Assembly (NCBI GenBank): GCA_964647565.1
Contig: CAZYIM010000054.1
Location: 1-12,570 of the forward strand
Length of the DNA stretch: 12,570 bases
Source of the DNA: an uncultured Methanosarcinales archaeon
GTDB taxonomy: Archaea > Nanobdellota > Nanobdellia > Woesearchaeales > CAZYIM01
Direction: 5' to 3'
A program made the position numbers and the translations under genes. The notes under the pieces were generated by a model that saw nothing but the letters and a program-made list of their open reading frames with translations, did not search any database and was not told the origin of the DNA. Each line of letters starts with the position of its first letter. Position 1 is the stretch's first letter. Shown piece after piece: positions 1 to 12,570 of the stretch.

Positions 1-297
1 AATTATAATGACCTAAGGGAGAATACTTATATCCCAAGATTATTGGTTTTGTATATTATGCCTACTGAAGAAGACCAATGGATGACACATAGTGAAGAAA
101 ATTTGATAAGTCGTAAGTGTGCTTACTGGTGTAATCTTAGTGGTTCTCCGGATGTAAGTAATACTACTTCTGTAACAGTTTATATTCCCAAAGAGAATGT
201 TTTAAATATTGGGGCACTAAGAGAATTAATGACAATTGCTTCAAGAAAAGATGACCTACCACACATTCTTAATGCGGGGGGTGAAAATAATGAATAA
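1..297 (+). CDS. DUF4365-like protein (predicted PD-(D/E)XK nuclease fold), C-terminal part; 5' truncated by the window edge
   Basis: Frame 1 is open from base 1: NYNDLRENTYIPRLLVLYIMP..W......L..RKCAYW.NL.G......TTSVTVYIPKEN. This matches my recollection of the DUF4365 C-terminal pattern. The stop TAA (295-297) overlaps the next ATG. Confidence 0.7.
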   Translation, partial: NYNDLRENTYIPRLLVLYIMPTEEDQWMTHSEENLISRKCAYWCNLSGSPDVSNTTSVTVYIPKENVLNIGALRELMTIASRKDDLPHILNAGGENNE

Positions 298-1420
298 TTC
301 CAAATTTATTAACCGTATGGGTGAAATTAAGTTAAACAGTATTAAGAATTACATTAATTCAAGAGGTTGGAATGAAAAAGAAACAAAGAAATCATTAATT
401 GAATTTACCAATGAAAAGGAAGATATAAACTACCAGTTACTAGTTCCAACAGATACATCTTATATTGATTATAAAAACTTAATGTACAATGCATTAGCGT
501 TATTAAGCAAATTTGAGAATAAGAGTGTTTATCAAATCTTCAATGATATTGTTATTCCAACTTCAGATATAATTAGGATAGCAATAGATGGTGAAAAGAC
601 TGTAGATGGAACAATCCCATTTGAAGATGGTTTGGGTGCATTGGAGGCATTCAAAAAAGCGATAATTGCTTCGGCATATAGTGTTGAAAAACCAGAACAG
701 TACCATAAGAGAACATATAGCCCAGAAGTTGAAAAGTTTCTTTCATCATGTAGATTGGGGCAAACCGAAAAAGGTAGTTTTGTGGCAACATTTTTCTGCC
801 CTCTTGATAATGTTCAATTGACATTATTTGGAGATGAAATTGAAAAATTCGGTAGAAAAGCTACAACTAATTTAATGAACTCCTTAAATCATATTCGTAA
901 ATCCATTGATAATCAGGATTTGAATAAAGTAATTAAGCCATTAGAAGGAGATCCGATTGTGAGTGGAAATCTATGTGATGCTATTTTAGATTTAAGACCT
1001 TCTTCAGTTAATTATAAACTTAGATTTGGTGTTACCTGGGCAAATAACAATCCTCCTGCAAATGTTTCCTCAAAAATTATCTTTAAAAGCTCTGATATGA
1101 GCGACATCACATTTCTTTCCAAAAGATTAGAACCAAAGACTGAAGAACATGTAGATACATTTATTGGTAAAGTAAGTCAATTAAGGGGGGAACCAAAAAA
1201 TAGTAAGATGCAAGGAGAAGCAATATTAACATTATTAGATTCTGAGGAGAATTATATCAGAGCTAAAGTAAGTTTAGGGTATCATTATTATCAGAAAGCA
1301 GTGAAATATCACGCATCCAATTCAAATGTTTCAATAAAAGGGAAGCTAGTTAAAGAGTCAAGTAGAATACATCGCATTGTTAATTTTTCTGAGTTTGGAG
1401 AACTTAAAAAATCTGAGTAA
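290..1420 (+). CDS. Hypothetical protein (~376 aa), partner of the DUF4365-like gene; possible OB-fold-like C-terminal domain
   Basis: Long ORF. The ATG at 290 follows an SD-like GGGGGTGA (276-283) and overlaps the upstream stop (ATGAATAA). It has a GQTEKGSF motif and a beta-rich C-terminus (FIGKVSQL...VSIKGKL). Confidence 0.8.
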   Translation: MNNSKFINRMGEIKLNSIKNYINSRGWNEKETKKSLIEFTNEKEDINYQLLVPTDTSYIDYKNLMYNALALLSKFENKSVYQIFNDIVIPTSDIIRIAIDGEKTVDGTIPFEDGLGALEAFKKAIIASAYSVEKPEQYHKRTYSPEVEKFLSSCRLGQTEKGSFVATFFCPLDNVQLTLFGDEIEKFGRKATTNLMNSLNHIRKSIDNQDLNKVIKPLEGDPIVSGNLCDAILDLRPSSVNYKLRFGVTWANNNPPANVSSKIIFKSSDMSDITFLSKRLEPKTEEHVDTFIGKVSQLRGEPKNSKMQGEAILTLLDSEENYIRAKVSLGYHYYQKAVKYHASNSNVSIKGKLVKESSRIHRIVNFSEFGELKKSE

Positions 1421-1566
1421 AGTTTTCTCGCCCCCATATTAATTTCTTTTTCGAAGAAAAAAACTATCTTAAAAGCCCCCTCTTAATAAATTTCTTAACG
1501 CAGTTAAGGCTATATGTGCGTAGCACTTGGACTCCCCCTTCCCTTTCTAAGTAATCCAAAAATTGG

Positions 1567-1655
1567 ATATAACATGGCGGATAGTCGAAGTTGCGAGTAT
1601 ATCGAGCAATTTGGGCGTAGGAGCGTGCTCCGGAGCCGACTATCCGCTGTTATGC
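1567..1655. repeat. attC-like recombination site 1 (branched imperfect inverted repeat)
   Basis: ATAACA(1569-1574)+TG bulge+GCGGATAGTCG(1577-1587) pairs with CGACTATCCGC(1637-1647)+TGTTAT(1648-1653). AAC/GTT core triplets sit at both ends. Internal stems: AAGTTGC/GCAATTT (1588-1612) and GGAGC/GCTCC (1620-1631). Confidence 0.75.
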
Positions 1656-1765
1656 TCCCGAATCCCCTACGTTAGTGGGGGTGAGGCAAGGGTTTACGTA
1701 GTAAATCCGCAGAGTTGCGCCTTTTCTTTTGGCTTTTACCCTATTTCTGGCGCAATTGAGTATAA
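1573..1765 (-). mobile_element. Putative gene-less (empty) 193-bp cassette between the two AA^C crossover points
   Basis: Bounded by two AAC cores (1571-1573, 1764-1766). GAGTATAAC (1758-1766) is complementary to GTTATGCTC (1649-1657), as expected for the reconstituted site of an excised circle. Confidence 0.6.
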
Positions 1766-1809
1766 CATGTATTAAGCGATACGGAGTTTCGTTTAATACC
1801 GTGTTATTT
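1760..1809. repeat. attC/attI-like recombination site 2 (short hairpin next to the recombinase)
   Basis: ATAACAT(1762-1768)+GTATTAAGCGA(1769-1779) pairs with TCGTTTAATAC(1789-1799)+unpaired C1800+GTGTTAT(1801-1807). It shares AATTGnnTATAACATG with site 1. Confidence 0.7.
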
Positions 1810-1851
1810 CTGTTTTTTGGGTGTGAGGTTTTATTAGGGAGGTTTGTTTTA

Positions 1852-1858
1852 GGGTGAT
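1852..1858 (+). promoter_or_regulatory. Shine-Dalgarno-like site of the recombinase gene
   Basis: GGGTGAT immediately upstream of ATG 1861; GGTGAT is the archaeal SD core. Confidence 0.55.
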
Positions 1859-1860
1859 TT

Positions 1861-2625
1861 ATGGAAAATAAGGATGATTTTCTTGCTAACAAGATTCGAG
1901 AATGGCGAATGAAGGGTTACTCGAAGAGGACTATTGAAACTTATTGCTATTTTATTCGGCGGTATAAGCAGTCGGGGATGGGGGCTTCTGATTTTGTTTA
2001 TTCTTTGGTGGCCAAGGGATATTCTACAGCATCTATTCGTCTTGTTTGTGCGGCTCTGCGAAGCTATTTGCCTGACACGCATATCCTTGTTCCTAAGAGG
2101 AAGAAGAGACTTCCGGTTGTTCTTTCCAAAAATGAGATTGAAAAAATGATTGCATCAACGCATAATCTAAAGCATCGTCTAGTTATTATACTGTTGTTCT
2201 CATCTGGTATGAGGGTTTCTGAACTGATCAATCTTTGCCTTGAAGATATTGATCTTGCTCGGAACATGATTCACTTAAAGGGCTGTAAGGGTGGTAAGGA
2301 TAGGTTAGCCTTGCTTTCGAAGAAGGCGAAAGCTGAACTTCGTAGATATGGTGTGTGTGAAGGGCTGGTTTTCTCAAAAGAGGGTAGAAAATACTCGCAT
2401 AGGTCTGTGCAGCAAATAGTATCTGATCTTGCAGTCAGAGCTGGTATTCCTAAGAGAGTAACCCCTCATACTCTTAGGCATTCATTTGCTACTCATCTGC
2501 TGGAGAGCGGTACCGATATTAGACATATTCAGAAGCTTCTTGGTCATTCTAACTTGGATACTACTCAGATTTACACTCATGTGGCCCGAAATGATTTGAG
2601 AAGAATAAAAAGTCCTTTTGATTGA
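1861..2625 (+). CDS. Tyrosine recombinase (Xer/integron-integrase-like) with a short SAM-like N-terminal domain
   Basis: Full catalytic set: R118 (SGMR), K143 (KGGKDR), H203-x-x-R206 (HTLRHSFATHLLE), H229 (LLGH) and Y238 (TQIYTHV). N-terminal GYSKRTIETY, K-LPVVLS and C-terminal SPFD resemble IntI-related recombinases. Confidence 0.95.
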   Translation: MENKDDFLANKIREWRMKGYSKRTIETYCYFIRRYKQSGMGASDFVYSLVAKGYSTASIRLVCAALRSYLPDTHILVPKRKKRLPVVLSKNEIEKMIASTHNLKHRLVIILLFSSGMRVSELINLCLEDIDLARNMIHLKGCKGGKDRLALLSKKAKAELRRYGVCEGLVFSKEGRKYSHRSVQQIVSDLAVRAGIPKRVTPHTLRHSFATHLLESGTDIRHIQKLLGHSNLDTTQIYTHVARNDLRRIKSPFD

Positions 2626-2626
2626 C

Positions 2627-3838
2627 TCACTGCCCCACACTATAGTAATCTTCCAGAATTATCTTGTCGAGTTTTTCGAGGTCTTTGACAACATAGAGCT
2701 TGCCAGCGCCTACTTCTGCTATCTTCTTGGCGAGTTCTTCACCTTTTTCATCCAGTTTGATACCGACCAACGAGATTGTGATCTTAGCGTTTCTTGCCTT
2801 TGAGACTGCTTCCATGGTGGCCCTTTCAGGCTCATCACCTTTGGTGGGAATTGCATCAGTAAGAATCACAAGATGTTTGGTGGCATTGCCCGGAGGGAAC
2901 ATCTCAAGAGCCTTTTCAATGGTCTTTGCAATATCTGTTTCCATCGCAGCCCTAATCTTGGTTAACTCTTCAATAAGGTCATTGAAGTTCTCTGTTGGCG
3001 GTACAGCCGCTTTGATGTCTGAGCCAAATACAATCAAACCTACCTTGTTCTTTTCTGTTATTGCCTTAAAAGCCAGTGCAATTCCTGCCTTTTTACAGGT
3101 CTTAAGCTTGTCGCCTTTCATTGAACCTGAAGAATCAATTGCATAGATGATGTTTATCTTGCCCTTTTTTTGCCTTTCAAAGATCCTTATATCATCTTTT
3201 TCTAATGCTGTATGTCCTCTTCTTATGGCTGTCTTGACGCTCTGTTTGATCGCAATATCCCTATATCTGGTTTTTTTGAAGTTGACATAGTCTTTCTTAT
3301 CCCCATAAAGGGATTTTTTCTTCTCTTTTTTCTCTCCCCAGCCTTTGGGCACAAGATTAGTAAGCTCCTCTGCGTATAATACCAAAGAACTTAACTTGAT
3401 TGCTTTGTCTGTGACAATGAAATCCTTGTCAACAAGGCCTTTTTCTTGTAGAAGATGAATCCTTTCCTCGATCCTTTTCTTGAGCTCTTTTTTGAATTCA
3501 GGTATGTTGATATTCTTTTCTATATAGTCAGAGGGATAGCCTGTCAATTCTCTGACTATGGTCTCACCGTAAAGCTTTTGGGCAAGCTTGTAATCCTTGA
3601 CCATGTTCTTGAACATGAGATCGGGTGTGAAGCTGCCCATACTCTGATTGATGCTTTCAGCAATCAGCTTGCCGTCATCTATTGTCTCCTGGTCGCTTTC
3701 AATAACAGAATGCATCAGTTTGTTCTCGTCACTGTTGTTTCGATCTAACTTGCCAGATAACTCTTCAATCTTTTCGAGTTTTTCCTTGTTAAGCTTCACA
3801 TCCGGGGCAACGTCAGGCAACCTGTCAAAGGTAACCAC
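2627..3838 (-). CDS. von Willebrand factor A domain protein (ChlD/BchD C-terminal-like), partner of the AAA+ ATPase
   Basis: MIDAS DSSGS motif (IYAIDSSGSM), later T and LVILTD. GTG start overlaps the end of the ATPase gene. Confidence 0.9.
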   Translation of the reverse strand: MVTFDRLPDVAPDVKLNKEKLEKIEELSGKLDRNNSDENKLMHSVIESDQETIDDGKLIAESINQSMGSFTPDLMFKNMVKDYKLAQKLYGETIVRELTGYPSDYIEKNINIPEFKKELKKRIEERIHLLQEKGLVDKDFIVTDKAIKLSSLVLYAEELTNLVPKGWGEKKEKKKSLYGDKKDYVNFKKTRYRDIAIKQSVKTAIRRGHTALEKDDIRIFERQKKGKINIIYAIDSSGSMKGDKLKTCKKAGIALAFKAITEKNKVGLIVFGSDIKAAVPPTENFNDLIEELTKIRAAMETDIAKTIEKALEMFPPGNATKHLVILTDAIPTKGDEPERATMEAVSKARNAKITISLVGIKLDEKGEELAKKIAEVGAGKLYVVKDLEKLDKIILEDYYSVGQ

Positions 3839-4814
3839 CCTTTTCTTCTAAGAACTTATCAAAAACATTAATAATATACTCTTCAGGTTTCTCTATGTAC
3901 TTGACACTTGGTTTTAATCTTATCCTGTGACTCAATACAGAAACTAAGACTGCTTGTATATCTTTCAAATCCACCTTTTCCCTGCCATTGACTTTTGCGT
4001 TTGACTGGGCTCTTTCAAAAATGCCTATGCTTGCACGGACACTGGGTTTTTTTTCTATGTTGTTATCTTCCCGCAGATCCCTGACAAAACCTATAATTCC
4101 ATTAAGCAGTTTATCTGGGAAATCTATAATCTTCTTACCCGCAGTAAGCACTATCTCTTTTTCTATCTCAGCACTTTCAGGATAGCCGACATAGATGATA
4201 TCAAACCTGTCTAAGAAGACGTCACTTAGAGGCTCTGTTGAACTATCTTCAGGATTCATAGTACCTATGAATATGAAATCAACATCTAAATCTACTGAAT
4301 AACTTCCTATAGTAACCTTTTTCTCTTCAAGAGCCTGTAATAGCGCGTTCTGTAGTTTTTCTGAGCATCTGTTGATCTCGTCGAAGAACAATACGCCCTG
4401 ATTGGCCTTGAACATTTTGCCTGGAGTGAAGGCTTCTAATGACAATGGTCCGAATTTCATGGCCTTGATTGGATCAATATCGCCTATCAGGTCTTCAGCC
4501 GTCAGGTCTGGGCTTCCTTGTACTCTGACAAACAGTTCCATTCCCTTGACTGTCTTGGTTTTAGTGTGCTTCTTTGCTTTGCACTCAGGGCAGACAGGTT
4601 TCGTTGGCTCACAGTTGTAGGAGCAGTTATTAACTTTTTTTTCTGGTAGTATCTTGGCAACATTCTTGGCAAGCGTGGTCTTGCCTATGCCGGGGGCTCC
4701 AACAAGGATGACATGCCGATCCATAAGAAGGGCTGATTTAAGCTGTTTCTTGACCTCTTCTTGACCCAGAATGTCATCAAAATTGTTTTTAAGTATGTAG
4801 TTTTCGAATTGCAT
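3825..4814 (-). CDS. AAA+ ATPase, Mg-chelatase ChlI / MoxR-like
   Basis: Walker A GAPGIGKT, Walker B LFFDEINR, TMNPED sensor, LDRF arginine finger, and a ChlI-like Cys cluster CSYNCEPTKPVCPEC. Confidence 0.9.
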   Translation of the reverse strand: MQFENYILKNNFDDILGQEEVKKQLKSALLMDRHVILVGAPGIGKTTLAKNVAKILPEKKVNNCSYNCEPTKPVCPECKAKKHTKTKTVKGMELFVRVQGSPDLTAEDLIGDIDPIKAMKFGPLSLEAFTPGKMFKANQGVLFFDEINRCSEKLQNALLQALEEKKVTIGSYSVDLDVDFIFIGTMNPEDSSTEPLSDVFLDRFDIIYVGYPESAEIEKEIVLTAGKKIIDFPDKLLNGIIGFVRDLREDNNIEKKPSVRASIGIFERAQSNAKVNGREKVDLKDIQAVLVSVLSHRIRLKPSVKYIEKPEEYIINVFDKFLEEKGGYL

Positions 4815-4837
4815 AGGGCAAAGTAAAATTGAGCTAG

Positions 4838-4853
4838 TTTTATAAAGTTTTTC
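4838..4853 (-). promoter_or_regulatory. Archaeal BRE/TATA promoter of the ATPase-vWA operon
   Basis: Minus strand reads GAAAAAC-TTTATAAAA, ending ~24 nt before ATG 4814, with no SD. This fits a leaderless transcript. Confidence 0.6.
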
Positions 4854-4985
4854 TATATGGTGTATTACTTAAAATAATGTTATTTTCTTATTTTTTGACT
4901 AATAATCAATTCTTTATTTAATTTAAAAACGCAAAATATAGAAAATACTTTCTTATATCTGAATATTATACTTAAACCTAATAAG

Positions 4986-5450
4986 GTGATAACAACGCGA
5001 AGAACATACAGAAGATCATCAATTGGAAGAGAACTTATTAAAGTAGGTATTTGGCTAAGTGCAGTGATCTTTATCCCTCTTGGATTAAATAAAGCATTCA
5101 ATGACTATCATCACCAAGGTTCACATTATGAGGTTCTATCAAAACCCTCTGGATGGTTAGGCCATAAGGAATACATCAGGTATTATGGTGCAGATGGCGA
5201 GCTGATTGCACAAGAGGCTAAAGAGTATAAAGGTCTTGGTCACAAATATACTTGCTCATCTGTTTACAGAGATAATGATGCAGACGGTGACATTGAAGTA
5301 ATCCAGGAGCATGGTGCAGAATGGAAGTTCAATGCACTTAAGATGTATGTTGAACAGGATCATAAGCTTGAAAACCCAGAAAAGTTTGAAAAGGGAGAAA
5401 AATTGATGAAAGAACTTGAGCAGAACTGGTTGAAAGGGCGAAACAAATAA
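4986..5450 (+). CDS. Hypothetical membrane-anchored or secreted protein with a DxDxDG motif; start uncertain
   Basis: Basic N-terminus, one hydrophobic segment (LIKVGIWLSAVIFIPLGL) and a DNDADGDIE motif. Confidence 0.7.
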   Translation: MITTRRTYRRSSIGRELIKVGIWLSAVIFIPLGLNKAFNDYHHQGSHYEVLSKPSGWLGHKEYIRYYGADGELIAQEAKEYKGLGHKYTCSSVYRDNDADGDIEVIQEHGAEWKFNALKMYVEQDHKLENPEKFEKGEKLMKELEQNWLKGRNK

Positions 5451-5460
5451 TTTTTTTAAT

Positions 5461-5514
5461 TTTTAATTACGCATATACGGAAATGATTTTAATTACGCAT
5501 ATACGGAAATGATT
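5461..5514. repeat. Perfect 26-bp tandem duplication (2 copies + 2 nt)
   Basis: TTTTAATTACGCATATACGGAAATGA at 5461-5486 and 5487-5512. Confidence 0.95.
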
Positions 5515-5560
5515 ATAAATAATGAGATATTTCTTTTTATTAAACAGGGGGTTTATTAAT

Positions 5561-5962
5561 ATGAAACAATCAAATGAAGCGAATTATGTTGTTGTACATG
5601 AGCAACTTACAGGTGTCTCTAAAGGCGCATTTACTAGTTCGGTCTTTCCATCAAAACAAGAAAGTGATGATTGGATTGCAAAGCGTTCAGTAGATTACAG
5701 GATAGAAGCAGAAGGAGTTTCTAGTGAAGAAGCAGAAAGAATCTGCCATCAAAAGACTCCTTTTTCAGTTCATATTAATGAGGCTGTCCATAAAGGTAAG
5801 ACTATACTTGATAATGGCGGTAGTATTGATACAGCCTTACAAATGGCAGATTCAAGATTAAGGACTGCCCAACTGGTTAAAGGTGTTGATAATCTTGTAT
5901 ATGGACGAGCCAAGCTGGATCTTATGAATAGACTATTTGATTATCAAGATTCCATTCGTTGA
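5561..5962 (+). CDS. Hypothetical protein (~133 aa)
   Basis: ATG 5561 follows GGGGG (5547-5551), with a TATA-like TTATAAAT at 5513-5520. No recognisable motif. Confidence 0.7.
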   Translation: MKQSNEANYVVVHEQLTGVSKGAFTSSVFPSKQESDDWIAKRSVDYRIEAEGVSSEEAERICHQKTPFSVHINEAVHKGKTILDNGGSIDTALQMADSRLRTAQLVKGVDNLVYGRAKLDLMNRLFDYQDSIR

Positions 5963-5973
5963 GCTTGGTTAAC

Positions 5974-6915
5974 ATGCCAAAACTCGAACTTCAAGTCTAC
6001 CCAAAAATAAACCTTTGTCTAGAAGTGATGAGACGAGATAGGTCGGGATATCATAAGATAGATACAGTCATCCAGGAAATTGGAAACAAGGACTTAAACT
6101 TTAAGACTCTAAACAGTATTCTTTCTGATCAAATTCAGGTTAAACTTCTTCTCGAATCAACAGAAGACAGGATAGCGCTTGATACTGACTATTCAATTGG
6201 TGAGGATACTCGCACTGAGATTTTTAATGCAATCCAAAATTTTATGAACAAATTCAGAGCTGATAAACTTGGCTTTATGGATGGGTTTTATCAAATCAAT
6301 CTTCAAAAACAAATCCCGGTTGGTGCGGGATTAGGGGGTGGAAGTGCAGACATGGCAGCTCTATTGAAATATGCTTTTAATGATCAGTCTACTAAAAAAA
6401 ATATTGACAACTATGGTGCTAATTTTGGCAAGGATATTCCTTTTTTCTTGCATGGAGGACTTTGTCGAGCAACAGGTTATGGCGATAAGATTGAAGAGCT
6501 GCTTGACCTGCCTGAGATGGATATCTTTATCTTATATCCTAAATTTAAGATTTCAACCAAATGGGCTTATAAGAAGTTGAATTCTAAAAAGAAAAAACCT
6601 GAATACATCCAGAATATCCTATTTTGTATTGAATCCAAAGCTTACAAAGACCTTCCAAAGGTCATTCATAATGATTTTGAGCCACTTATACTTGATAAAT
6701 ATCCTTTACTGGCTAAAATGAAAAAAGATCTGGCCATTTCAAATGTACATTGCAACTTGACTGGTTCTGGCTCTGCTTTTTTTGGCTTTTCAGATCAAGA
6801 AGTTGAAGATAGGCTTATTTCATTGGTCGATCAAAATCAGTTTTCTCTTTATTTTACCAAGACTCGTCCTCGAAATGCTCACCAGTCAAATCGTAAGATT
6901 TTCGATAGTCTTTAA
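5974..6915 (+). CDS. ispE: 4-diphosphocytidyl-2-C-methyl-D-erythritol kinase (GHMP kinase, IspE family)
   Basis: PKINLCLEV..R..GYHKIDTV, KQIPVGAGLGGGSAD, G.DIPFF..GG...ATG.GD, ISTKWAY, NDFE and LTGSGSAFFG. ATG 5974 preferred over TTG 5959. Confidence 0.85.
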   Translation: MPKLELQVYPKINLCLEVMRRDRSGYHKIDTVIQEIGNKDLNFKTLNSILSDQIQVKLLLESTEDRIALDTDYSIGEDTRTEIFNAIQNFMNKFRADKLGFMDGFYQINLQKQIPVGAGLGGGSADMAALLKYAFNDQSTKKNIDNYGANFGKDIPFFLHGGLCRATGYGDKIEELLDLPEMDIFILYPKFKISTKWAYKKLNSKKKKPEYIQNILFCIESKAYKDLPKVIHNDFEPLILDKYPLLAKMKKDLAISNVHCNLTGSGSAFFGFSDQEVEDRLISLVDQNQFSLYFTKTRPRNAHQSNRKIFDSL

Positions 6916-7008
6916 GGACTTTAAATTTAAAGACTTCAGCCTTTATACCTTTTTGGACAAGACATTCTGCCGTGGAATATATAAAGGAAATTATTCTATT
7001 ATTATCAT

Positions 7009-7248
7009 ATGACTTTTATCAAAATCAACAATACAATCCAGGATTATAAGAAATATACTAAAGAGACACTTCTTCTGAAGAACTATCTTAAGATAAAGCT
7101 AAAAGAGATCTTAAAAGAACAAGATTTCTCTCTGATAGCATTAGAGTCCGGCACCTATGATGAGGTTGTTCTTGTCTTTTACAACAAACACAAAGACCTA
7201 CAGTTGACAATGAGTGTCTTCAAGAAAGGCAAAGAGGTGTTTGTCTAG
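7009..7248 (+). CDS. Small hypothetical protein (79 aa)
   Basis: ATG-initiated ORF filling the gap, with a TATA-like ATATATAAA ~25 nt upstream. Confidence 0.55.
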   Translation: MTFIKINNTIQDYKKYTKETLLLKNYLKIKLKEILKEQDFSLIALESGTYDEVVLVFYNKHKDLQLTMSVFKKGKEVFV

Positions 7249-7324
7249 AATCACAATATTTTTATAATCTTTTGTAATATTATCTCATGTTTTATTATAA
7301 AAAATAACATATGAGGTAATTCAA

Positions 7325-7567
7325 ATGGTGAAAGCAATGATTACACTTGGAGAAAAGCAGGACAGGATATTAACAATTGTCAAAGGCAAATACGGACTCA
7401 AGACCAAATCAGAAGCAATAAATTTGGTTATAGATAAGTTCGAAGAGGAGATTCTTGAGCCACCACTTAGGCCTGAATTTGTTGAGAAATTGAACAAGAT
7501 AAAGAAACAGAAAGGCCTCAGGTTCAAGAATGTTGATGAGCTTAGGAAAAGTATTGAAAATGCGTGA
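7325..7567 (+). CDS. Type II antitoxin, DUF2683-like (ribbon-helix-helix type)
   Basis: MVKAMITL....DRILTIVKGKYGLKTKSEAI....EEEILEP.LRPEF matches the archaeal DUF2683 pattern. SD GAGGT at 7313-7317; overlaps the toxin start. Confidence 0.8.
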   Translation: MVKAMITLGEKQDRILTIVKGKYGLKTKSEAINLVIDKFEEEILEPPLRPEFVEKLNKIKKQKGLRFKNVDELRKSIENA

Positions 7568-7829
7568 TTTTGAGATAAAGCCAATTTTAAAAAAGAAGTT
7601 GGATAAGTTGTATAAGAAAGATAGAATTCTTTGTGAATATATTTTTAAGAAGATTGATGAAATTATCAATAATCCCTATATTGAGCATTATAAAAATTTG
7701 AGATATGATTTCAAGAAATCAAAAAGGGTACATATAGGTTCATTTGTCTTGGTTTTCTGTTTTGATAAAGAAAAAGACTTTATTTATTTTGAAGATTTTA
7801 ATCATCATGATCAGATATATGGAAGCTAA
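7560..7829 (+). CDS. Type II toxin, RelE/ParE (YafQ-like) family
   Basis: 89-aa basic protein with KKIDEI..NP..HYKNLRYD....KRVHIGSFVLVF...F.HHD.IY. ATG 7560 overlaps the antitoxin stop (ATGCGTGA). Confidence 0.85.
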   Translation: MRDFEIKPILKKKLDKLYKKDRILCEYIFKKIDEIINNPYIEHYKNLRYDFKKSKRVHIGSFVLVFCFDKEKDFIYFEDFNHHDQIYGS

Positions 7830-7836
7830 AACAATA

Positions 7837-8541
7837 TTACTTTTTTTCAACCTCAATGATTTTCTGATCGATGATGAAGTTATTGCGTTTTACATTTGAT
7901 TTGAGGTAATCAATAACATCTGATTTAAGCTGTTGATACTCTTCAGGATATGTATCGAATGAGAGCTTTAGAGTTTCGAAAAGATCTTCATAATCCTTGT
8001 AGTATATGGTTGATGAGATTGTATACTCTCGAAATTCGTGATTTTTAACAAGATCCAACAGAATATCATACGTGAAGTGGTAATCTGTTTTGACTAAGGC
8101 TGCAAATGCAAGCTTGACAGGGCCGTAATCCGCAGTCTTTCCATTAACCACAAACAAAGCAATCCCGCCAGGATTCAGAGTATCTATAATCTTGTCTAAT
8201 GCTTTTCTCTTATCCTTGAAATAATAGATGACATGGGATGCAATTATTACATCATATTTTTTGTCTGTTTGAAGCTCTTCCCAATCTGAATTAATCAACT
8301 CTACATTTTTAGGAATATTGCCTATGTATTCTCTTTTTTCAACAATTAAGTATTTTTTAAAATTATTAGACATATGCTCTGCAAAGGAGGGATTAGTGCC
8401 CAGGCCAATCTCTAGGCATGTTTTAAAACCTCTTCCTTCAATTAGATTGGATATCTTATCTATAAGAATATTTTTTTCATCTGTTGCTGAAATAAATCTT
8501 TTATACCATGTTTCATTGAACTCAACTTGGTCTACAGGCAT
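7837..8541 (-). CDS. Class I SAM-dependent methyltransferase, substrate unknown
   Basis: Motif I CLEIGLG, acidic IVE, DWE, YDVIIASHVIYY and LNPGG. Confidence 0.85.
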   Translation of the reverse strand: MPVDQVEFNETWYKRFISATDEKNILIDKISNLIEGRGFKTCLEIGLGTNPSFAEHMSNNFKKYLIVEKREYIGNIPKNVELINSDWEELQTDKKYDVIIASHVIYYFKDKRKALDKIIDTLNPGGIALFVVNGKTADYGPVKLAFAALVKTDYHFTYDILLDLVKNHEFREYTISSTIYYKDYEDLFETLKLSFDTYPEEYQQLKSDVIDYLKSNVKRNNFIIDQKIIEVEKK

Positions 8542-8589
8542 AGCTTTGTTGATAGAGTTGTCATATTAAAATGTTTCTTAAATGGCAAA

Positions 8590-8598
8590 TTATATAAA
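8590..8598 (+). promoter_or_regulatory. TATA box of the DUF368 gene
   Basis: TTATATAAA ending ~23 nt before ATG 8622; no SD. Confidence 0.55.
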
Positions 8599-8621
8599 GA
8601 CACATTTAACTAACCAATCTC

Positions 8622-9473
8622 ATGAAGACCACCATCAAAGAATACATTCTCATCTTTCTACGCGGTCTTTTAATGGGTATTGCCGACATCATACCTGGCG
8701 TTTCTGGAGGTACTATGGCACTTGTTACTGGTATCTATCAACGACTTGTACATGCTATCAGCAGCCTAACTTCGGAGTTTGTACCTCAGTTTTTCAAGGG
8801 AAAGTTCAAGAAGGCATTCAAACAGGTTGACTTCGCATTGTTTATCCCTTTACTCCTGGGAATAGCAATAGCTTTTCTGGCACTCTCTCATCTGATGGGC
8901 TTCTTACTTGAAGAATATACTGCATATACATTTGCATTTTTCTTTGGGCTTATACTTTCATCTGCATTTTTTGTATATAAGCATATTGGGAAGATCGGAT
9001 GGTCATCAATAGTAGTAGGCATCATTGGAATGGTTTTTGCGTTTTGGTTTGTTGGCTTGAATCCTTTTGCAGCGAACCACTCTATTCCTATCCTGTTCCT
9101 TTCAGCTGTGATTGCAATCTGTGCAATGATTTTACCAGGCATATCAGGCTCTTTTATCCTGCTTCTTTTAGGGCAATATGAGTATTTGCTTTCTGTTCTT
9201 AGAAACCTGGAAATTGGAAAAATATTTGTTTTTATCATGGGTGCAAGTATTGGTTTGCTGGCATTCTCAAGATTACTCGATTGGCTACTGAAGAAATTCA
9301 AGGCACCTACTATGGCTTTTCTGACAGGATTGATGGTAGGTTCATTAAGGCTGCCTTATACTAAAATTGCAGGATCTGGTGGATATCTTTGGTTAATAAT
9401 TCTGTTAGCACTGATTGGCTTTGGCGCTGTGTTTATCATAGAAAAAAAATTTGGAAATACTAGCAAAGCTTAA
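8622..9473 (+). CDS. DUF368 family membrane protein (polyprenyl-phosphate translocase family)
   Basis: Two signature repeats, MGIADIIPGVSGGTMAL..GIY and AMILPGISGSFILLLLGQY, plus multiple TM helices. Confidence 0.92.
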   Translation: MKTTIKEYILIFLRGLLMGIADIIPGVSGGTMALVTGIYQRLVHAISSLTSEFVPQFFKGKFKKAFKQVDFALFIPLLLGIAIAFLALSHLMGFLLEEYTAYTFAFFFGLILSSAFFVYKHIGKIGWSSIVVGIIGMVFAFWFVGLNPFAANHSIPILFLSAVIAICAMILPGISGSFILLLLGQYEYLLSVLRNLEIGKIFVFIMGASIGLLAFSRLLDWLLKKFKAPTMAFLTGLMVGSLRLPYTKIAGSGGYLWLIILLALIGFGAVFIIEKKFGNTSKA

Positions 9474-10692
9474 TTTTTTCAGTCTTTTCTTTAATATATT
9501 CAGAACTAATTAAATCTTTAACAAGCGCTGTAGGTATCTTGTACTGTCTCTTTAGTTTGGCAAATGCCCATCCTTTCTCAATAAAAGCCTTTTTGCCATG
9601 CTTTTCCATAAACTTCTCAAAATCTGCTCCTGTTTTTTCAGGCGGTCCCTTTCTGATTACAAAATCGCTCATTTTTTCCTTTTTTAACACAAAGTAAAGG
9701 TGAGATGGATAACCGAACTGCCATTTTGATTCAATAATCTTGAAATCATTGATCTTAAGATATTTACATATATGTTCAAACGCTTTCATTATCTTGGCGC
9801 CCACTACATCTTTTTTTCCCTCGAGTGGTGAGACCTCTAAAAAGATAAGCCATTCGTTTGAATTCCTCTTTTGAACCTCTGCATTTGAGATCTTTTTTAT
9901 AGTGAAAAACTCTTTAGAGGATTTATGCAGGAAATCTCTTGCCTTTTGCTTGAAGATATCAAACTTCTCCCTGCCAAGAGCAGCAGCTGCATTTCTATCT
10001 GGCTGGATCGGATCCACCAATATCAAAGGACTGTGAGTTTTAGATTTGTTCAATTCTTTGATGGGATCTTTAAGGTGTTTTTCAACATCAATCACAACTT
10101 TTTTACCCCAGACGCTGGCTTGCATCAGCAGTTTTTCAAATGAGCCATAATGAATTATTAGGATGTCCAGTACATGACCTGAAAAACCTTTGAGGTATGA
10201 CTCAGCACCATATACTTCAATGCCTTTACAGAATTTCTTGGCTAGACGGATCTCATCAGCCAGTTCAGGATTCTTATCGACGTATTTTTTCACATAATAA
10301 ACGTGCAAAGGACTCATGTCTGTGACATTCTCTGCTTTAGTATAATTATCGATATCTAATACAGGTACTAATTCATAGATAATATCCTCCTTCAACTGGA
10401 AATAATCCCTGCTGCCATGTACCCTTTCTAGATTCTCAAAATCACAAAGTACTTTTTCTAGCATATCTGAAATATTTTTATTCTTGTATTTATAGTCAAA
10501 CCTGATAAAAAGATCAACATCATAATCGTTCTTCAGGAACGTACCCTTTGCAAATGAGCCGCCTAGAACGCATTTTGCCTTTATGTTGTTCTTTTTTAGA
10601 TTAGTATTTATACGATCAACTACTTCAATCACGTGTTCCATTAAGACCCTGTCAGGTTTTATTTCTTTTTTCAATTCTTCAAGTAGTTTCAT
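9460..10692 (-). CDS. cca: CCA-adding tRNA nucleotidyltransferase, archaeal class I
   Basis: GGSFAKGTFL..DYDVDLF, ELVP, D.SP.H, YGAE....GFSG...ILI.HYGSF and DPIQP.RNAAAA. ATG 10692 has a TATA-like TTTTTAAAA ~24 nt upstream. Confidence 0.93.
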   Translation of the reverse strand: MKLLEELKKEIKPDRVLMEHVIEVVDRINTNLKKNNIKAKCVLGGSFAKGTFLKNDYDVDLFIRFDYKYKNKNISDMLEKVLCDFENLERVHGSRDYFQLKEDIIYELVPVLDIDNYTKAENVTDMSPLHVYYVKKYVDKNPELADEIRLAKKFCKGIEVYGAESYLKGFSGHVLDILIIHYGSFEKLLMQASVWGKKVVIDVEKHLKDPIKELNKSKTHSPLILVDPIQPDRNAAAALGREKFDIFKQKARDFLHKSSKEFFTIKKISNAEVQKRNSNEWLIFLEVSPLEGKKDVVGAKIMKAFEHICKYLKINDFKIIESKWQFGYPSHLYFVLKKEKMSDFVIRKGPPEKTGADFEKFMEKHGKKAFIEKGWAFAKLKRQYKIPTALVKDLISSEYIKEKTEKIKLC

Positions 10693-10797
10693 AGAACTTA
10701 AAAGAGCCAATCATCTTTTAAAAATCTTCTTCTTCCAATGACTTTTTCGAAAACTTAATATACCCTCTGTGTTAAGAACTATAAAAAGAGGTTGACT

Positions 10798-12006
10798 ATG
10801 GATGCACTGCTTTTTTTAACTAATCTTGTTGTAATTTTATTCTTAGGAGTAATATTCACAATTATCTCAAAGAAGCTCAGGATATCTAATGTTCTTGTTT
10901 TAATACTATTAGGTCTGTTTATGAAATTCATTAACGCGGTGATGAACCAGAATGATATCTTTAAGTTTGACTTTTCAGCATCATTTCTTGTAGCTATTTC
11001 CATATTGGGTTTGGCAATGGTGGTTTTTGACGGATCCTCAAGGTTCAAGCTAAAAGAAGTCGATGCCATGTCCAGTCATTCGTTAAGACTGGTAGGTATT
11101 TTCCTGTTATTTAACATAATCCTTGTGGCTTTTGTCACTAATCTGCTTTTCTTTAATTCTTTTTCAGCGGAGAACATAATATTTTCGCTTATTTTTGCTA
11201 TTGTAGTATCAGGTACTGATCCTGGTTCGGTATTTTTTATGTTGAAAAACAAGTCTAACAGGATTGTAAAGTTCTTGGAACTAGAAGCGATAATGAATAC
11301 TCCAATCATAATAATTATACCATTCTTGCTTGTAGACTTTATCAACAATCTTACTGGTGCGGGCTTGGTAGTAGGATTTGTGAATCTCGTATCTCCCTTC
11401 TTGCTGCAGCTTTTTGTAGGTGTGGGTGTGGGTATTATTATTGGTGTTGTTTTGTTCAAGTCTATTCGTAAGGCATATTCTGCCAGATTGACTCCTCTAG
11501 TTGTGATGATTGCAGCTCTTCTTTCATATATATTGTCGGAAAACCTTGGAGGTAGCGGAGTGTTGGCCGTCGCCACTCTTGGTTTGGTTTTTGGTAATGT
11601 GTACATTAAGCACAAGGCAGAACTTCAGGAGTTCAGTTCATTGTTTTCAGACTCTCTCGAGATTCTGGTATTTGTTCTTCTTGGTTTCATTATTGAGATT
11701 CCATTCACTTGGTCATTCTTTCTAAAATCCTTGATTATCTTCATTGTTCTGCTTATTTCAAGATTCTTGGCAATATCCGTTTCATTGAGAGGATCTGTAT
11801 ATGCGCTTAGAGAGAAGTTTTTCATGGCAATTAACATGCCCAAAGGCATTGCAGTTGCGGTGGTGGCTTTTTCTTTCACAGTATTAAAATCTGACTCTCT
11901 TGGTACAATCACTAACCTAATCCTAATATTTATAATATACTCTTTAATTCTTTCTTCATTGGCAGACAGATTTGCCAAGAGATTTATTGGAATAAAGATT
12001 GATTAA
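10798..12006 (+). CDS. CPA1/NhaP-type cation:proton antiporter (variant ion-binding motif)
   Basis: ~12-13 TM segments with GTDP, LE.EAIMNTP, GGSGVLAVATLGL..GN, F.LLG and PKG motifs. SD GAGGT precedes ATG 10798. Confidence 0.85.
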   Translation: MDALLFLTNLVVILFLGVIFTIISKKLRISNVLVLILLGLFMKFINAVMNQNDIFKFDFSASFLVAISILGLAMVVFDGSSRFKLKEVDAMSSHSLRLVGIFLLFNIILVAFVTNLLFFNSFSAENIIFSLIFAIVVSGTDPGSVFFMLKNKSNRIVKFLELEAIMNTPIIIIIPFLLVDFINNLTGAGLVVGFVNLVSPFLLQLFVGVGVGIIIGVVLFKSIRKAYSARLTPLVVMIAALLSYILSENLGGSGVLAVATLGLVFGNVYIKHKAELQEFSSLFSDSLEILVFVLLGFIIEIPFTWSFFLKSLIIFIVLLISRFLAISVSLRGSVYALREKFFMAINMPKGIAVAVVAFSFTVLKSDSLGTITNLILIFIIYSLILSSLADRFAKRFIGIKID

Positions 12007-12007
12007 A

Positions 12008-12570
12008 ATGAAAATTATCTTAGGTGTTGCAGGTACATCAGGGTTAGGGTATGAAAACGCCTTTAAGCAATGTGCCGAAACTGATATTGGTGCTTTGGAG
12101 GTTGAATTTACCTATGGGGTCAGGATGCCAATTGAAGACGCGAAATTGATTGGCGAACTTGCTAAGAAGAACAATGTAGCGCTCTCAGTGCATGCCCCTT
12201 ATTATATCAATCTTGTTTCAAAGGAAAAACAGAAAATAGGTGCCAGCAGGACCAGGATTCTTCAGAGCTGTGAAAGGGCGCATTATCTGGGTGCATCGCC
12301 AATTGTCTTTCATGCAGGTTTCTATATGGGTAGAGATCCCTCGACCATATATGACTCTATAAAAGAACAGATTGAAAAGCTTCATGATGCTATTAAGGAA
12401 AATGGTTGGGAAGTCCAACTTGCACCTGAGGTGACTGGTAAACCAACTCAATTTGGTAATCTTGAAGAGCTGCAGAGATTGAGCAAGGAAACAGGCTGTA
12501 CATACTGCATTGATTTTTCACATATGTTGGCCAGGAACGGTTCAATTGATTACAATGATGTTGTTTCAAG
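12008..12570 (+). CDS. nfo: Endonuclease IV (AP endonuclease family 2), archaeal type; 3' truncated
   Basis: Absent from the ORF track because there is no stop in the window. Manual translation from ATG 12008: MKIILGVAG...LEVEFTYGV...LSVHAPYYINL...IVFHAGFY...APEVTGK..QFG...CIDFSH. Confidence 0.88.
   Translation, partial: MKIILGVAGTSGLGYENAFKQCAETDIGALEVEFTYGVRMPIEDAKLIGELAKKNNVALSVHAPYYINLVSKEKQKIGASRTRILQSCERAHYLGASPIVFHAGFYMGRDPSTIYDSIKEQIEKLHDAIKENGWEVQLAPEVTGKPTQFGNLEELQRLSKETGCTYCIDFSHMLARNGSIDYNDVVS

Follow-up and report, generated by a model that had tools for sequence, protein, structure and literature searches.

The subject of this analysis is an intergenic region in a 12,570-nt stretch of DNA, here called the window (contig CAZYIM010000054.1, positions 1–12,570, assembly GCA_964647565.1), from an uncultured archaeon of the Woesearchaeales. 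The region spans 440 nt (1421–1860) and lies between the candidate defence genes PDC-M02A/B and a gene for a XerA-like tyrosine recombinase (1861–2625, + strand). On balance we lean towards the explanation that sites in this region function as folded single-stranded DNA (ssDNA) in an integron-like system, run by a Xer-type recombinase that lacks the domain specific to integron integrases (IntI). Under this explanation the region would be the recombinase-proximal end of a cassette array, with a dedicated recombinase beside a palindromic primary site (1764–1807) and cassettes stacked upstream of that site in a single orientation. A Y-shaped, attC-like site (Y-site) would open each cassette, and an A-module, with segments complementary to a B-module at the cassette's start, may close it. 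The window would thus hold the tail and A-module of a PDC-M02 defence cassette, one mini-cassette without open reading frames (ORFs; 1568–1768) and the primary site. The sites would be read as folded + single strands, that is, the recombinase sense strand and the counterpart of the integron 'bottom' strand, and strand exchange would take place between TATAA and the following C, at the 5' base of the fold. Only the + strand would serve as a substrate, owing to its C-GNA-G mini-hairpins, its bulge and its conserved G.T wobbles. Below, G000 denotes the window's own genome (assembly of 2.68 Mb, 86 contigs), other G numbers the genomes of relatives and L numbers related loci.

The Y-site of the window (1570–1652, +) belongs to a family with a conserved architecture. 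It reads TAAC, A, a 2-nt bulge, an 11-bp stem P1 (1577–1587 with 1637–1647), AAGTT, a hairpin, AATTT, GGG, a second hairpin, the returning stem strand, T and GTTA, so that TAAC/GTTA and an A:T pair close the base, an invariant G1590.T1610 lies in AAGTT/AATTT and two hairpins form the apex. In an alignment of 12 short copies 98.8% of 252 cells are paired, compared with 31–54% in slid controls; 11 of 21 pairs show compensatory change, and the observed values were reached by 0 of 500 shuffles. The helix of the 11-bp stem differs in sequence between copies while its pairing is kept (compensatory change in 10 of 16 pairs). The alignment holds 16 G.T cells and no A.C cells, with the G.T of AAGTT/AATTT invariant. 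A covariance model built from these 12 copies, R1, scores the window's site at 72.4 bits (E = 3.3e-12), its single match in G000. R1 detects Y-sites in 68 of 151 order genomes with a completeness of 90% or more, the unpublished G131 included, at most nine per genome and often in same-strand arrays. In the separate reading of Y-sites by sequence pattern, L058:7595, L020:969, L049:3618(-) and the overlapping L057:4730 were left out as false matches. An attC is an imperfect palindrome with RYYYAAC..GTTRRRY ends and extrahelical bases, and is recombined as a folded single strand; in the Y-sites the ends are TAAC/GTTA, the stem covaries and has a 2-nt bulge, wobble is strand-specific and the fold is a three-way junction.

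The recombinase (254 aa; Pfam Phage_integrase, 1.2e-38) is closest to Pyrococcus abyssi XerA (PDB 4a8e, 1.1e-46), with which its catalytic Arg (GMRVSE) and Tyr (QIYTH) align, and scores 215.2 bits against NCBIfam recomb_XerA_Arch (cut-off 220). The IntI-specific domain around patch III was not detected: TIGR02249 gives 172.7 against a cut-off of 265 and PRK15417 108.1 against 435. Since integron integrases (models and PDB IntI4 2a3v) match in two separate stretches, the protein lacks the IntI insertion. XerA-like genes occur in 119 of the 151 order genomes (unpublished G131 and G111 included in this survey), and G000 has a second one, on contig C48, with 41% identity and no similar site upstream. 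When the best 150 of about 176 protein matches were compared with the best 150 of 160 site matches, 24 contigs among the matches listed, the window's own included, carried Y-sites up to 15 kb upstream of a XerA-like gene on the same strand, and two (G093:C20 and G134:C2) carried them downstream. Arrays that lead into the recombinase gene contain six Y-sites in G065:C2, five in G006:C2, four in G017:C13 and three in G028:C3. The layout that defines an integron, namely a one-orientation cassette array adjoining an integrase with a primary site between the two, is thus found here.

The proximal site (1756–1807, +) opens with a junction 11-mer, TTGAGTATAAC (1756–1766), which runs into a palindrome (1764–1807) with arms TATTAAGCGA (1770–1779) and TCGTTTAATA (1789–1798), and ends in GTGTTAT (1801–1807). 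A homologous palindrome lies 100–150 nt upstream of the gene in 23 of the 29 best XerA-like loci of the order; of the remainder, three have its left part only, two have none and one could not be judged. The consensus is TTGnnnnTAAC-Ann-nTATTAARCGnA, 5–9 nt, TnCGYTTAATAn-nn-GTT, and the positions flanking the palindrome covary too. More distant XerA-like genes lack such a site, among them the only copy in each of the single-contig genomes G016 and G157 and the paralogues of G000 and G353. In relatives a AAAGCGAAAnTTTATATA box, which may be read as a B recognition element and TATA box (BRE/TATA), stands between the proximal site and the ATG, and at most loci the palindrome is upstream of it. If so read, this position would place the palindrome outside the recombinase mRNA. 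The possible TATA box of the window's recombinase gene is TTTTATTA (1829–1836, +). At 12 of the 29 loci the contig breaks off in the 250 nt upstream of the gene, i.e. at the site, in one case exactly at TAAC, which is what variable or repeated DNA at the junction would yield. The archaeal dif is a single 28-bp site (11-6-11) in the replication terminus; a scan of G000 for a classical dif (GTATAA-N6-TTATAC) returned 13 matches against 24 expected by chance. At L118 (G084:C1, about 182190–182215) a palindrome, CGTATAA-GGTATA-TTATACG, precedes by about 25 nt the ATG of a XerA-like gene that is without cassette sites. Its arm equals the cassette junction motif GCGTATAA(C); it may be a classical dif beside xerA, and hints that the junction 11-mer is a Xer-type binding arm.

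Cassettes in this family also carry recognisable ends. The A-module of the window (1446–1573, +), at a cassette 3' end, has about 85% identical copies in relatives, between which the stems vary yet stay complementary. It comprises a hairpin TTTTTC-GAA-GAAAAA (1447–1461) followed by AGCCCCCTCTTAATAAATTTC, a covarying hairpin CTTAAC-GCA-GTTAAG (1494–1508), the 15-mer ATATGTGCGTAGCAC (1512–1526), GGACTCCCCC (1529–1538), a hairpin at 1554–1568 and the junction 11-mer TTGGATATAAC (1563–1573), all on the + strand. Positions 1463–1540 resemble relatives of other families at about 85% identity, often close to contig ends. The 15-mer, with one mismatch allowed, is present in 86 of 401 sampled order genomes, with seven matches for the reversed control, and in 44 of 401 genomes of a phylum-level sample, seven of these from other orders of the class. 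The counts include the unpublished G131, G209 and G244, from which no sequence was taken; loose matches at L022, L027, L028, L039, L040, L045 and L054:3017 were left out as false. G000 has no further copies: its one 15-mer and one Y-site are those of the window. Within the 15-mer, GCGAAGC or GCGTAGC occurs in 45 of 46 copies. The mini-hairpin DNA motif (GCGNAGC or GCGNNAGC) is present by sequence in the window, as GCGTAGC at 1518–1524.

A- and B-modules share a core, TAATAAATTTC, hairpin, ATATGTGCG(T/A)AGCAC. A-modules, such as 1446–1573, terminate in an 11-mer TTGnnnnTAAC, directly behind which divergence begins, and B-modules follow the recombination site, ahead of the genes; B...A pairs lie on the same strand, 1.5–12 kb apart, and enclose genes. 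The two ends of one cassette hold three mutually complementary segments, whose sequences differ among cassettes (for example GGGATAATTCC/GGAATTATCCC in L051 and AGGGGCTAATCTCT/AGAGATTAGCCCCT in L056). Over seven pairs the mean complementarity score is 75.5 for cognate ends and 54.2 for non-cognate ends. The mini-hairpins of these modules may serve, for example, as priming or promoter signals on ssDNA. In many pre-core hairpins the sequence of the inner stem is variable and a tandem G.A/A.G mismatch (CGA...GAG) persists at the base of the stem, as in CGA-GGC-GAA-GCC-GAG, an example from the B-type modules of L052, L056 and L051. In a variant seen at L007, L021 and L029, which lie upstream of the recombinase genes of G035, G353 and G154, the A-core is fused straight to the 3' half of a Y-site (AAAATTTGG, hairpin, CGTTAAATCAWTGTTAG), and a CGATTTAACGAAGGCAC motif comes next, before the proximal site.

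Between the A-module and the proximal site lies the ORF-less mini-cassette (1568–1768, +), flanked by two copies of TATAACATG (1568–1576 and 1761–1769). Behind its Y-site is a B0-like segment (1654–1712, +) made of CCCGAA, a hairpin (1664–1681), GGCAAGGG, a hairpin with a GTA triloop (1690–1708) and CCGCAGAGT; the same motif order is repeated behind Y-sites in relatives, e.g. at L051 7784–7860. A hairpin of GTTGCGCC and GGCGCAAT (1714–1756, +, with G1714.T1756) corresponds to the B1:A3 end-pairing, here in cis, and segments equivalent to its two strands are found at both cassette ends in relatives. Logan contigs from three metagenome runs cover exactly 1568/9–1768, from one TATAACATG to the next, at 100% identity and 8.8–13.8x, against 2–6x for the flanks. 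In X2, X3 and X5 the contigs continue past 1768 into CGGGCTTATGAGAAGTT..., another Y-site-like sequence and not the proximal site, and join it exactly at AACAT. This continuation places the mini-cassette beside a different partner in the population, with the junction inside TATAACAT. The contigs are short and come from mixed communities; they therefore represent an alternative arrangement and not an event in this genome. The locus was found in eight runs, all DNA metagenomes, from two studies. Metagenome contigs aligned to the stretch showed no joints, indels or variants inside it, and the informative loose ends were those at 1506–1579 and 1768 only; loose ends at 2466–2622, inside the recombinase gene, are probably due to homologues in other organisms.

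The cargo of the cassettes is mostly defence. In relatives it includes type I, II and IIG restriction-modification systems (the IIG Eco57I/MmeI-like), Vsr, HEPN/nucleotidyltransferase pairs, GHKL ATPases with methylases, and PLD-helicase/PD-(D/E)XK sets; one set, of a C5-methylase, R.HinP1I and Vsr, occupies exactly the interval between two Y-sites. The few non-defence genes are MFS, TrmB and YbaK-like. In L054 six Y-sites in 4.6 kb are followed by a restriction-modification cassette of 7 kb, which has B- and A-modules, and then by the proximal site and the recombinase gene; the window shares this type of end: defence cassette tail with A-module, ORF-less mini-cassette, proximal site and recombinase gene. 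The window begins within the first cassette gene, the 3' part of a DUF4365 gene (1–297, +; Pfam 5.8e-12) and candidate PDC-M02A (PADLOC 5.3e-30). The second, PDC-M02B (290–1420, +; 376 aa), matches its PADLOC model at full length (1.1e-93), and its product has no Pfam or NCBIfam match. One large cassette, in L058 (G326:C49), carries an IS200-type Y1 transposase gene (8539–8967) together with KilA-N, Bro-N and RadC genes; this is the only HUH-type ssDNA enzyme seen close to these sites.

The first-pass annotation had proposed that the + strand of 1447–1809 is enriched in cGNAg triloops and has been selected to fold as ssDNA. The enrichment is real: CGNAG occurs nine times on the + strand (1452, 1499, 1519, 1586, 1616, 1631, 1697, 1708 and 1782) and twice on the − strand. 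In 5000 dinucleotide-preserving shuffles (mean 1.30, sd 1.07, maximum 6) neither nine occurrences nor a strand difference of seven was ever reached, and the genome-wide rate of 1.32 per kb per strand predicts 0.48. Among about 106,000 intervals of 363 nt in the 2.68-Mb assembly (step 50, both strands), 1447–1809 is the sole one with nine; other intervals of G000 with seven or eight were rejected as comparable cases, being coding sequence in which the motif caps no hairpins. Of five stems thought to be capped by such a triloop, four have at least 4 bp and a C-GNA-G triloop (1447–1461, GAA; 1494–1508, GCA; 1516–1526, GTA; 1690–1708, GTA), and the fifth, AC-GGA-GT (1780–1786), has 2 bp and sits within the loop of a larger palindrome. 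G stands opposite T at all six stem positions for which wobbles had been noted (1590/1610, 1668/1677, 1692/1706, 1714/1756, 1776/1792 and 1768/1801). Folding also reaches past the recombination sites, as had been suggested, since the A-module and the B0-like segment fold as well.

Region 1421–1860 folds significantly better than its shuffles on either strand, and the + strand better than the −. With DNA parameters the energies are −60.9 kcal/mol (+, z −4.1) and −57.3 (−, z −3.2), and with RNA parameters −149.3 (+, z −6.4) and −114.3 (−, z −3.2). Across Y-sites the + strand folds better in 24 of 24, with DNA and RNA parameters alike, and has 39 G.T pairs against three on the − strand; among 27 proximal sites it is more stable in 19, equal in three and less stable in five, with 12 G.T pairs against two. 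The proposal therefore holds as regards strand-specific folding of the + strand, and the part that names DNA as the folded molecule is favoured. A general hairpin census is noisy in AT-rich DNA, and motif-specific counts alone were used: for stems of at least 3 bp the counts of C-GNA-G triloops and GNRA tetraloops are four and zero in the window, 18 and six in 23 Y-sites from relatives, and two and 25 in the organism's own 16S plus 23S rRNA. The Hirao review describes d(GCGNAGC) mini-hairpins as exceptionally stable in DNA form, much less so in their RNA versions, and as poorly bound by single-strand binding protein (SSB); the natural sites it describes are ssDNA initiation signals, namely the G4 origin, ssiA and the N4 promoters (PMC13037366). 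Those are phage or plasmid priming or promoter signals, whereas here GCGTAGC and the many stems capped by C-G-closed GNA triloops lie in and around predicted recombination sites of chromosomal cassettes.

Among known systems, integrons are one to which the arrays come close. On the folded strand a canonical integron runs from host DNA through n units of RYYYAAC (broken before its C), attC bottom strand and cassette, to a final AAC, attI and intI, read in the direction of intI (PMC9668308, with established integron biology). Here too one-orientation cassette arrays stand beside a tyrosine recombinase with a primary site between it and the first cassette; the cassette sites are imperfect palindromes with a bulged stem, ending in ..TAAC and GTTA.., like RYYYAAC/GTTRRRY; ORF-less cassettes occur; and the cargo is restriction-modification, toxin-antitoxin and defence. 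The analogy with the attC bottom strand, drawn in the first-pass annotation, fits the same-strand arrays upstream of the recombinase, the identity of the folded strand with the recombinase sense strand and the junction ..TATAAC followed by AT. The differences are a XerA-like recombinase without the IntI-specific domain, a palindromic primary site, sites that are three-way junctions of 76–180 nt with conserved AAGTT/AATTTGGG, many cassettes of several genes, reaching about 12 kb, whose A and B end modules are complementary, and cassette ORFs that run mostly with the folded strand rather than against it. In Ghaly et al. 2022 archaeal attCs, which the TAAC/GTTA ends described here resemble, start with ACATAAC or GTATAAC and end with GTTATGG or GTTATAC (Data S9), Nanoarchaeota and seawater cassettes are enriched in PF00145 and PF04471 (C5 methylases/restriction endonucleases), and the Nanoarchaeota attC clusters have 0 IntI, with Xer entering only as an outgroup (PMC9668308). 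These clusters may be the same phenomenon, and neither AATTTGGG nor the 15-mer was found in the portion of the supplement text available to us. Beyond that study the literature searched yielded nothing that links XerA-like recombinases to archaeal cassette arrays, and the accessible sections of PMC12259885 do not treat the topic.

A second point of comparison is the CTXphi type of integrative mobile element exploiting Xer (IMEX), in which host XerCD acts on a folded single strand of roughly 150 nt, attP(+), and on dif, and elements stack beside the chromosomal site (PMC5357621). The present arrays differ in carrying gene cassettes without phage genes, a site at every cassette boundary and a linked recombinase gene, which in G000, G353 and G027 is a paralogue beside another XerA-like gene. 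Archaeal XerA/dif systems share the protein family and the two-arm palindromic layout of the proximal site; they differ in that here the NCBIfam score falls just under its cut-off, and in the linked variable cassette arrays and strand-specific wobble.

The main rival explanation, which we consider unlikely, is that the folds function in RNA: transcription of the + strand would turn A-module, Y-site and B0 into a structured non-coding RNA or untranslated-region element for processing, stability or regulation of cassette and recombinase mRNAs, with G.T read as G.U and recombination taking place at the same positions on duplex DNA. The much better + strand fold with RNA parameters, the invariant wobble positions, the TATA-like TTAATAAATTT boxes within A and B modules and the fact that most cassette ORFs and the recombinase gene lie on the strand of the folds all speak for it. 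Yet Rfam gives no match at gathering score in the window or in eight related loci; the three matches within 1380–1900 (E 0.4–8 in a search up to E 10) are at chance level and were rejected as known RNAs, and neither window nor related loci contain a tRNA or tmRNA. The loops of the window are C-GNA-G triloops, unlike the GNRA tetraloops of the organism's own rRNAs, and the promoter-like box of the recombinase gene lies downstream of the proximal site. A transcript begun at the TATA-like box would be expected to miss the covarying pre-core hairpin, which is situated between this box and the 15-mer; in the array, kilobases separate the complementary A and B ends; and some cassettes, such as those of L055 and L051, have all or part of their genes on the opposite strand. 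Because of the DNA mini-hairpin loops, the position of the proximal site upstream of the recombinase promoter and, in some cassettes, the independence of module and gene orientation, we favour DNA over RNA as the folded molecule.

It is less probable still that these are duplex sites of Xer/dif type with elements integrated at dif in the manner of IMEX, the palindromes reflecting two-fold protein binding and the G.T excess strand-biased mutation instead of selection for folding. The recombinase is indeed XerA-like, the proximal site has 10–11-bp inverted arms around a 5–9-nt spacer, some archaea have adjacent xerA/dif modules, and IMEX elements stack at dif (PMC5357621). Such sites would have two arms, however, whereas Y-sites are three-way junctions, and binding of one protein does not account for the compensatory change in the Y-site helix; G.T exceeds A.C by 39 to 3 with invariant positions among these, the flanks of the proximal palindrome covary, and in single-contig G016 and G157 no such site accompanies the sole XerA-like gene. 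Very improbable, in our estimate, is that the mini-hairpin modules are not recombination sites at all and instead belong to an integrated replicon of rolling-circle or ssDNA type, as its signals for single-strand initiation or origin (priming, ssDNA promoters). C-GNA-G mini-hairpins do mark ssDNA phage origins, ssiA and N4 promoters (PMC13037366), and A and B modules share their conserved core of hairpin plus 15-mer. Against this, no Rep/HUH gene is linked, apart from the one Y1 gene in a single L058 cassette, and arrays of up to six sites adjoin a tyrosine recombinase; moreover, module context is seen at 0 of 16 exact IMG/VR matches to the 15-mer, for which a viral origin was accordingly rejected. 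Initiation could nevertheless be an accessory function of the A and B cores within the integron-like explanation.

Several observations weigh against the folded-ssDNA, integron-like explanation itself. Invariant G.U-type wobbles are a hallmark of functional RNAs, DNA parameters give a modest energy gap between the strands and RNA parameters a large one, and transcripts of the folded strand probably exist because most cassette ORFs run with it. Nine of 30 pre-core hairpins have AAA and not GNA loops. The alternative junction comes from short metagenome contigs, and a related strain, instead of recombination in this genome, could be its source. In G164, G035 and G065 (81–92% complete) the site-linked gene is the only full-length XerA homologue found, and for this reason its product may double as the housekeeping enzyme. 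The proximal site is laid out in two arms, as is classical for a duplex Xer site, and the XerA enzymes studied to date act on duplex dif (PMC2958812, PMC3646895). Finally, Ghaly et al. deem the IntI domain necessary for integron-mediated recombination (PMC9668308), and the recombinase described here is without it.

The remainder of the window contains a gene for a class-I CCA-adding enzyme (9460–10710), by which the window is assigned to an archaeon; the genomes of its order-level relatives measure 0.6–2 Mb. Directly after the recombinase gene, and convergent with it, a MoxR-type AAA+ ATPase (3825–4814) and a VWA-domain protein (2627–3838) are encoded on the − strand (2627–4814), where GC is about 0.41 compared with about 0.31 in the upstream defence cassette. 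A 26-nt unit (TTTTAATTACGCATATACGGAAATGA x2) forms a perfect tandem duplication at 5461–5512, between ORFs 4986–5450 and 5522–5962, neither of which has a family match. Further on, 7530–7829 (+) is a ParE-like toxin ORF, with a Pfam E of 1.7e-4 that falls under the cut-off, and a small ORF upstream of it (7009–7248 or 7325–7567) could be the antitoxin.

Integron integrases are thought to have derived from Xer-like recombinases. To our knowledge every integron described so far, the archaeal ones of 2022 included, has been defined by the IntI-specific domain, and here a recombinase without that domain is physically linked, at fixed polarity, to arrays of structured, strand-specific cassette sites. 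A bolder and doubtful proposal, which we put forward tentatively, is that this is a Xer-based counterpart of the integron, widespread in the archaeal class and either ancestral to IntI/attC or an independent invention. Multi-gene defence cassettes would be captured and shuffled via folded ssDNA sites by a XerA-like enzyme that has no IntI domain. Once excised, they would be ssDNA circles in which A-module, Y-site and B-module share one fold of about 0.4 kb, with C-GNA-G mini-hairpins that would withstand SSB and act as primers or promoters of second-strand synthesis. The sites appear to break assemblies, as the contigs that end there indicate. If the integron-like explanation is true, this part of the genomes of such archaea may therefore be under-sampled, the origin of single-strand, structure-specific recombination would become directly testable with one small enzyme and short oligonucleotides, and the IntI-free Nanoarchaeota attC clusters of Ghaly et al. 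may be accounted for. In the dense C-GNA-G mini-hairpins a cellular genome would then show an unusually clear sequence mark of functional ssDNA, and the arrays would give ultra-small archaea a mobile store of defence systems, restriction-modification among them.

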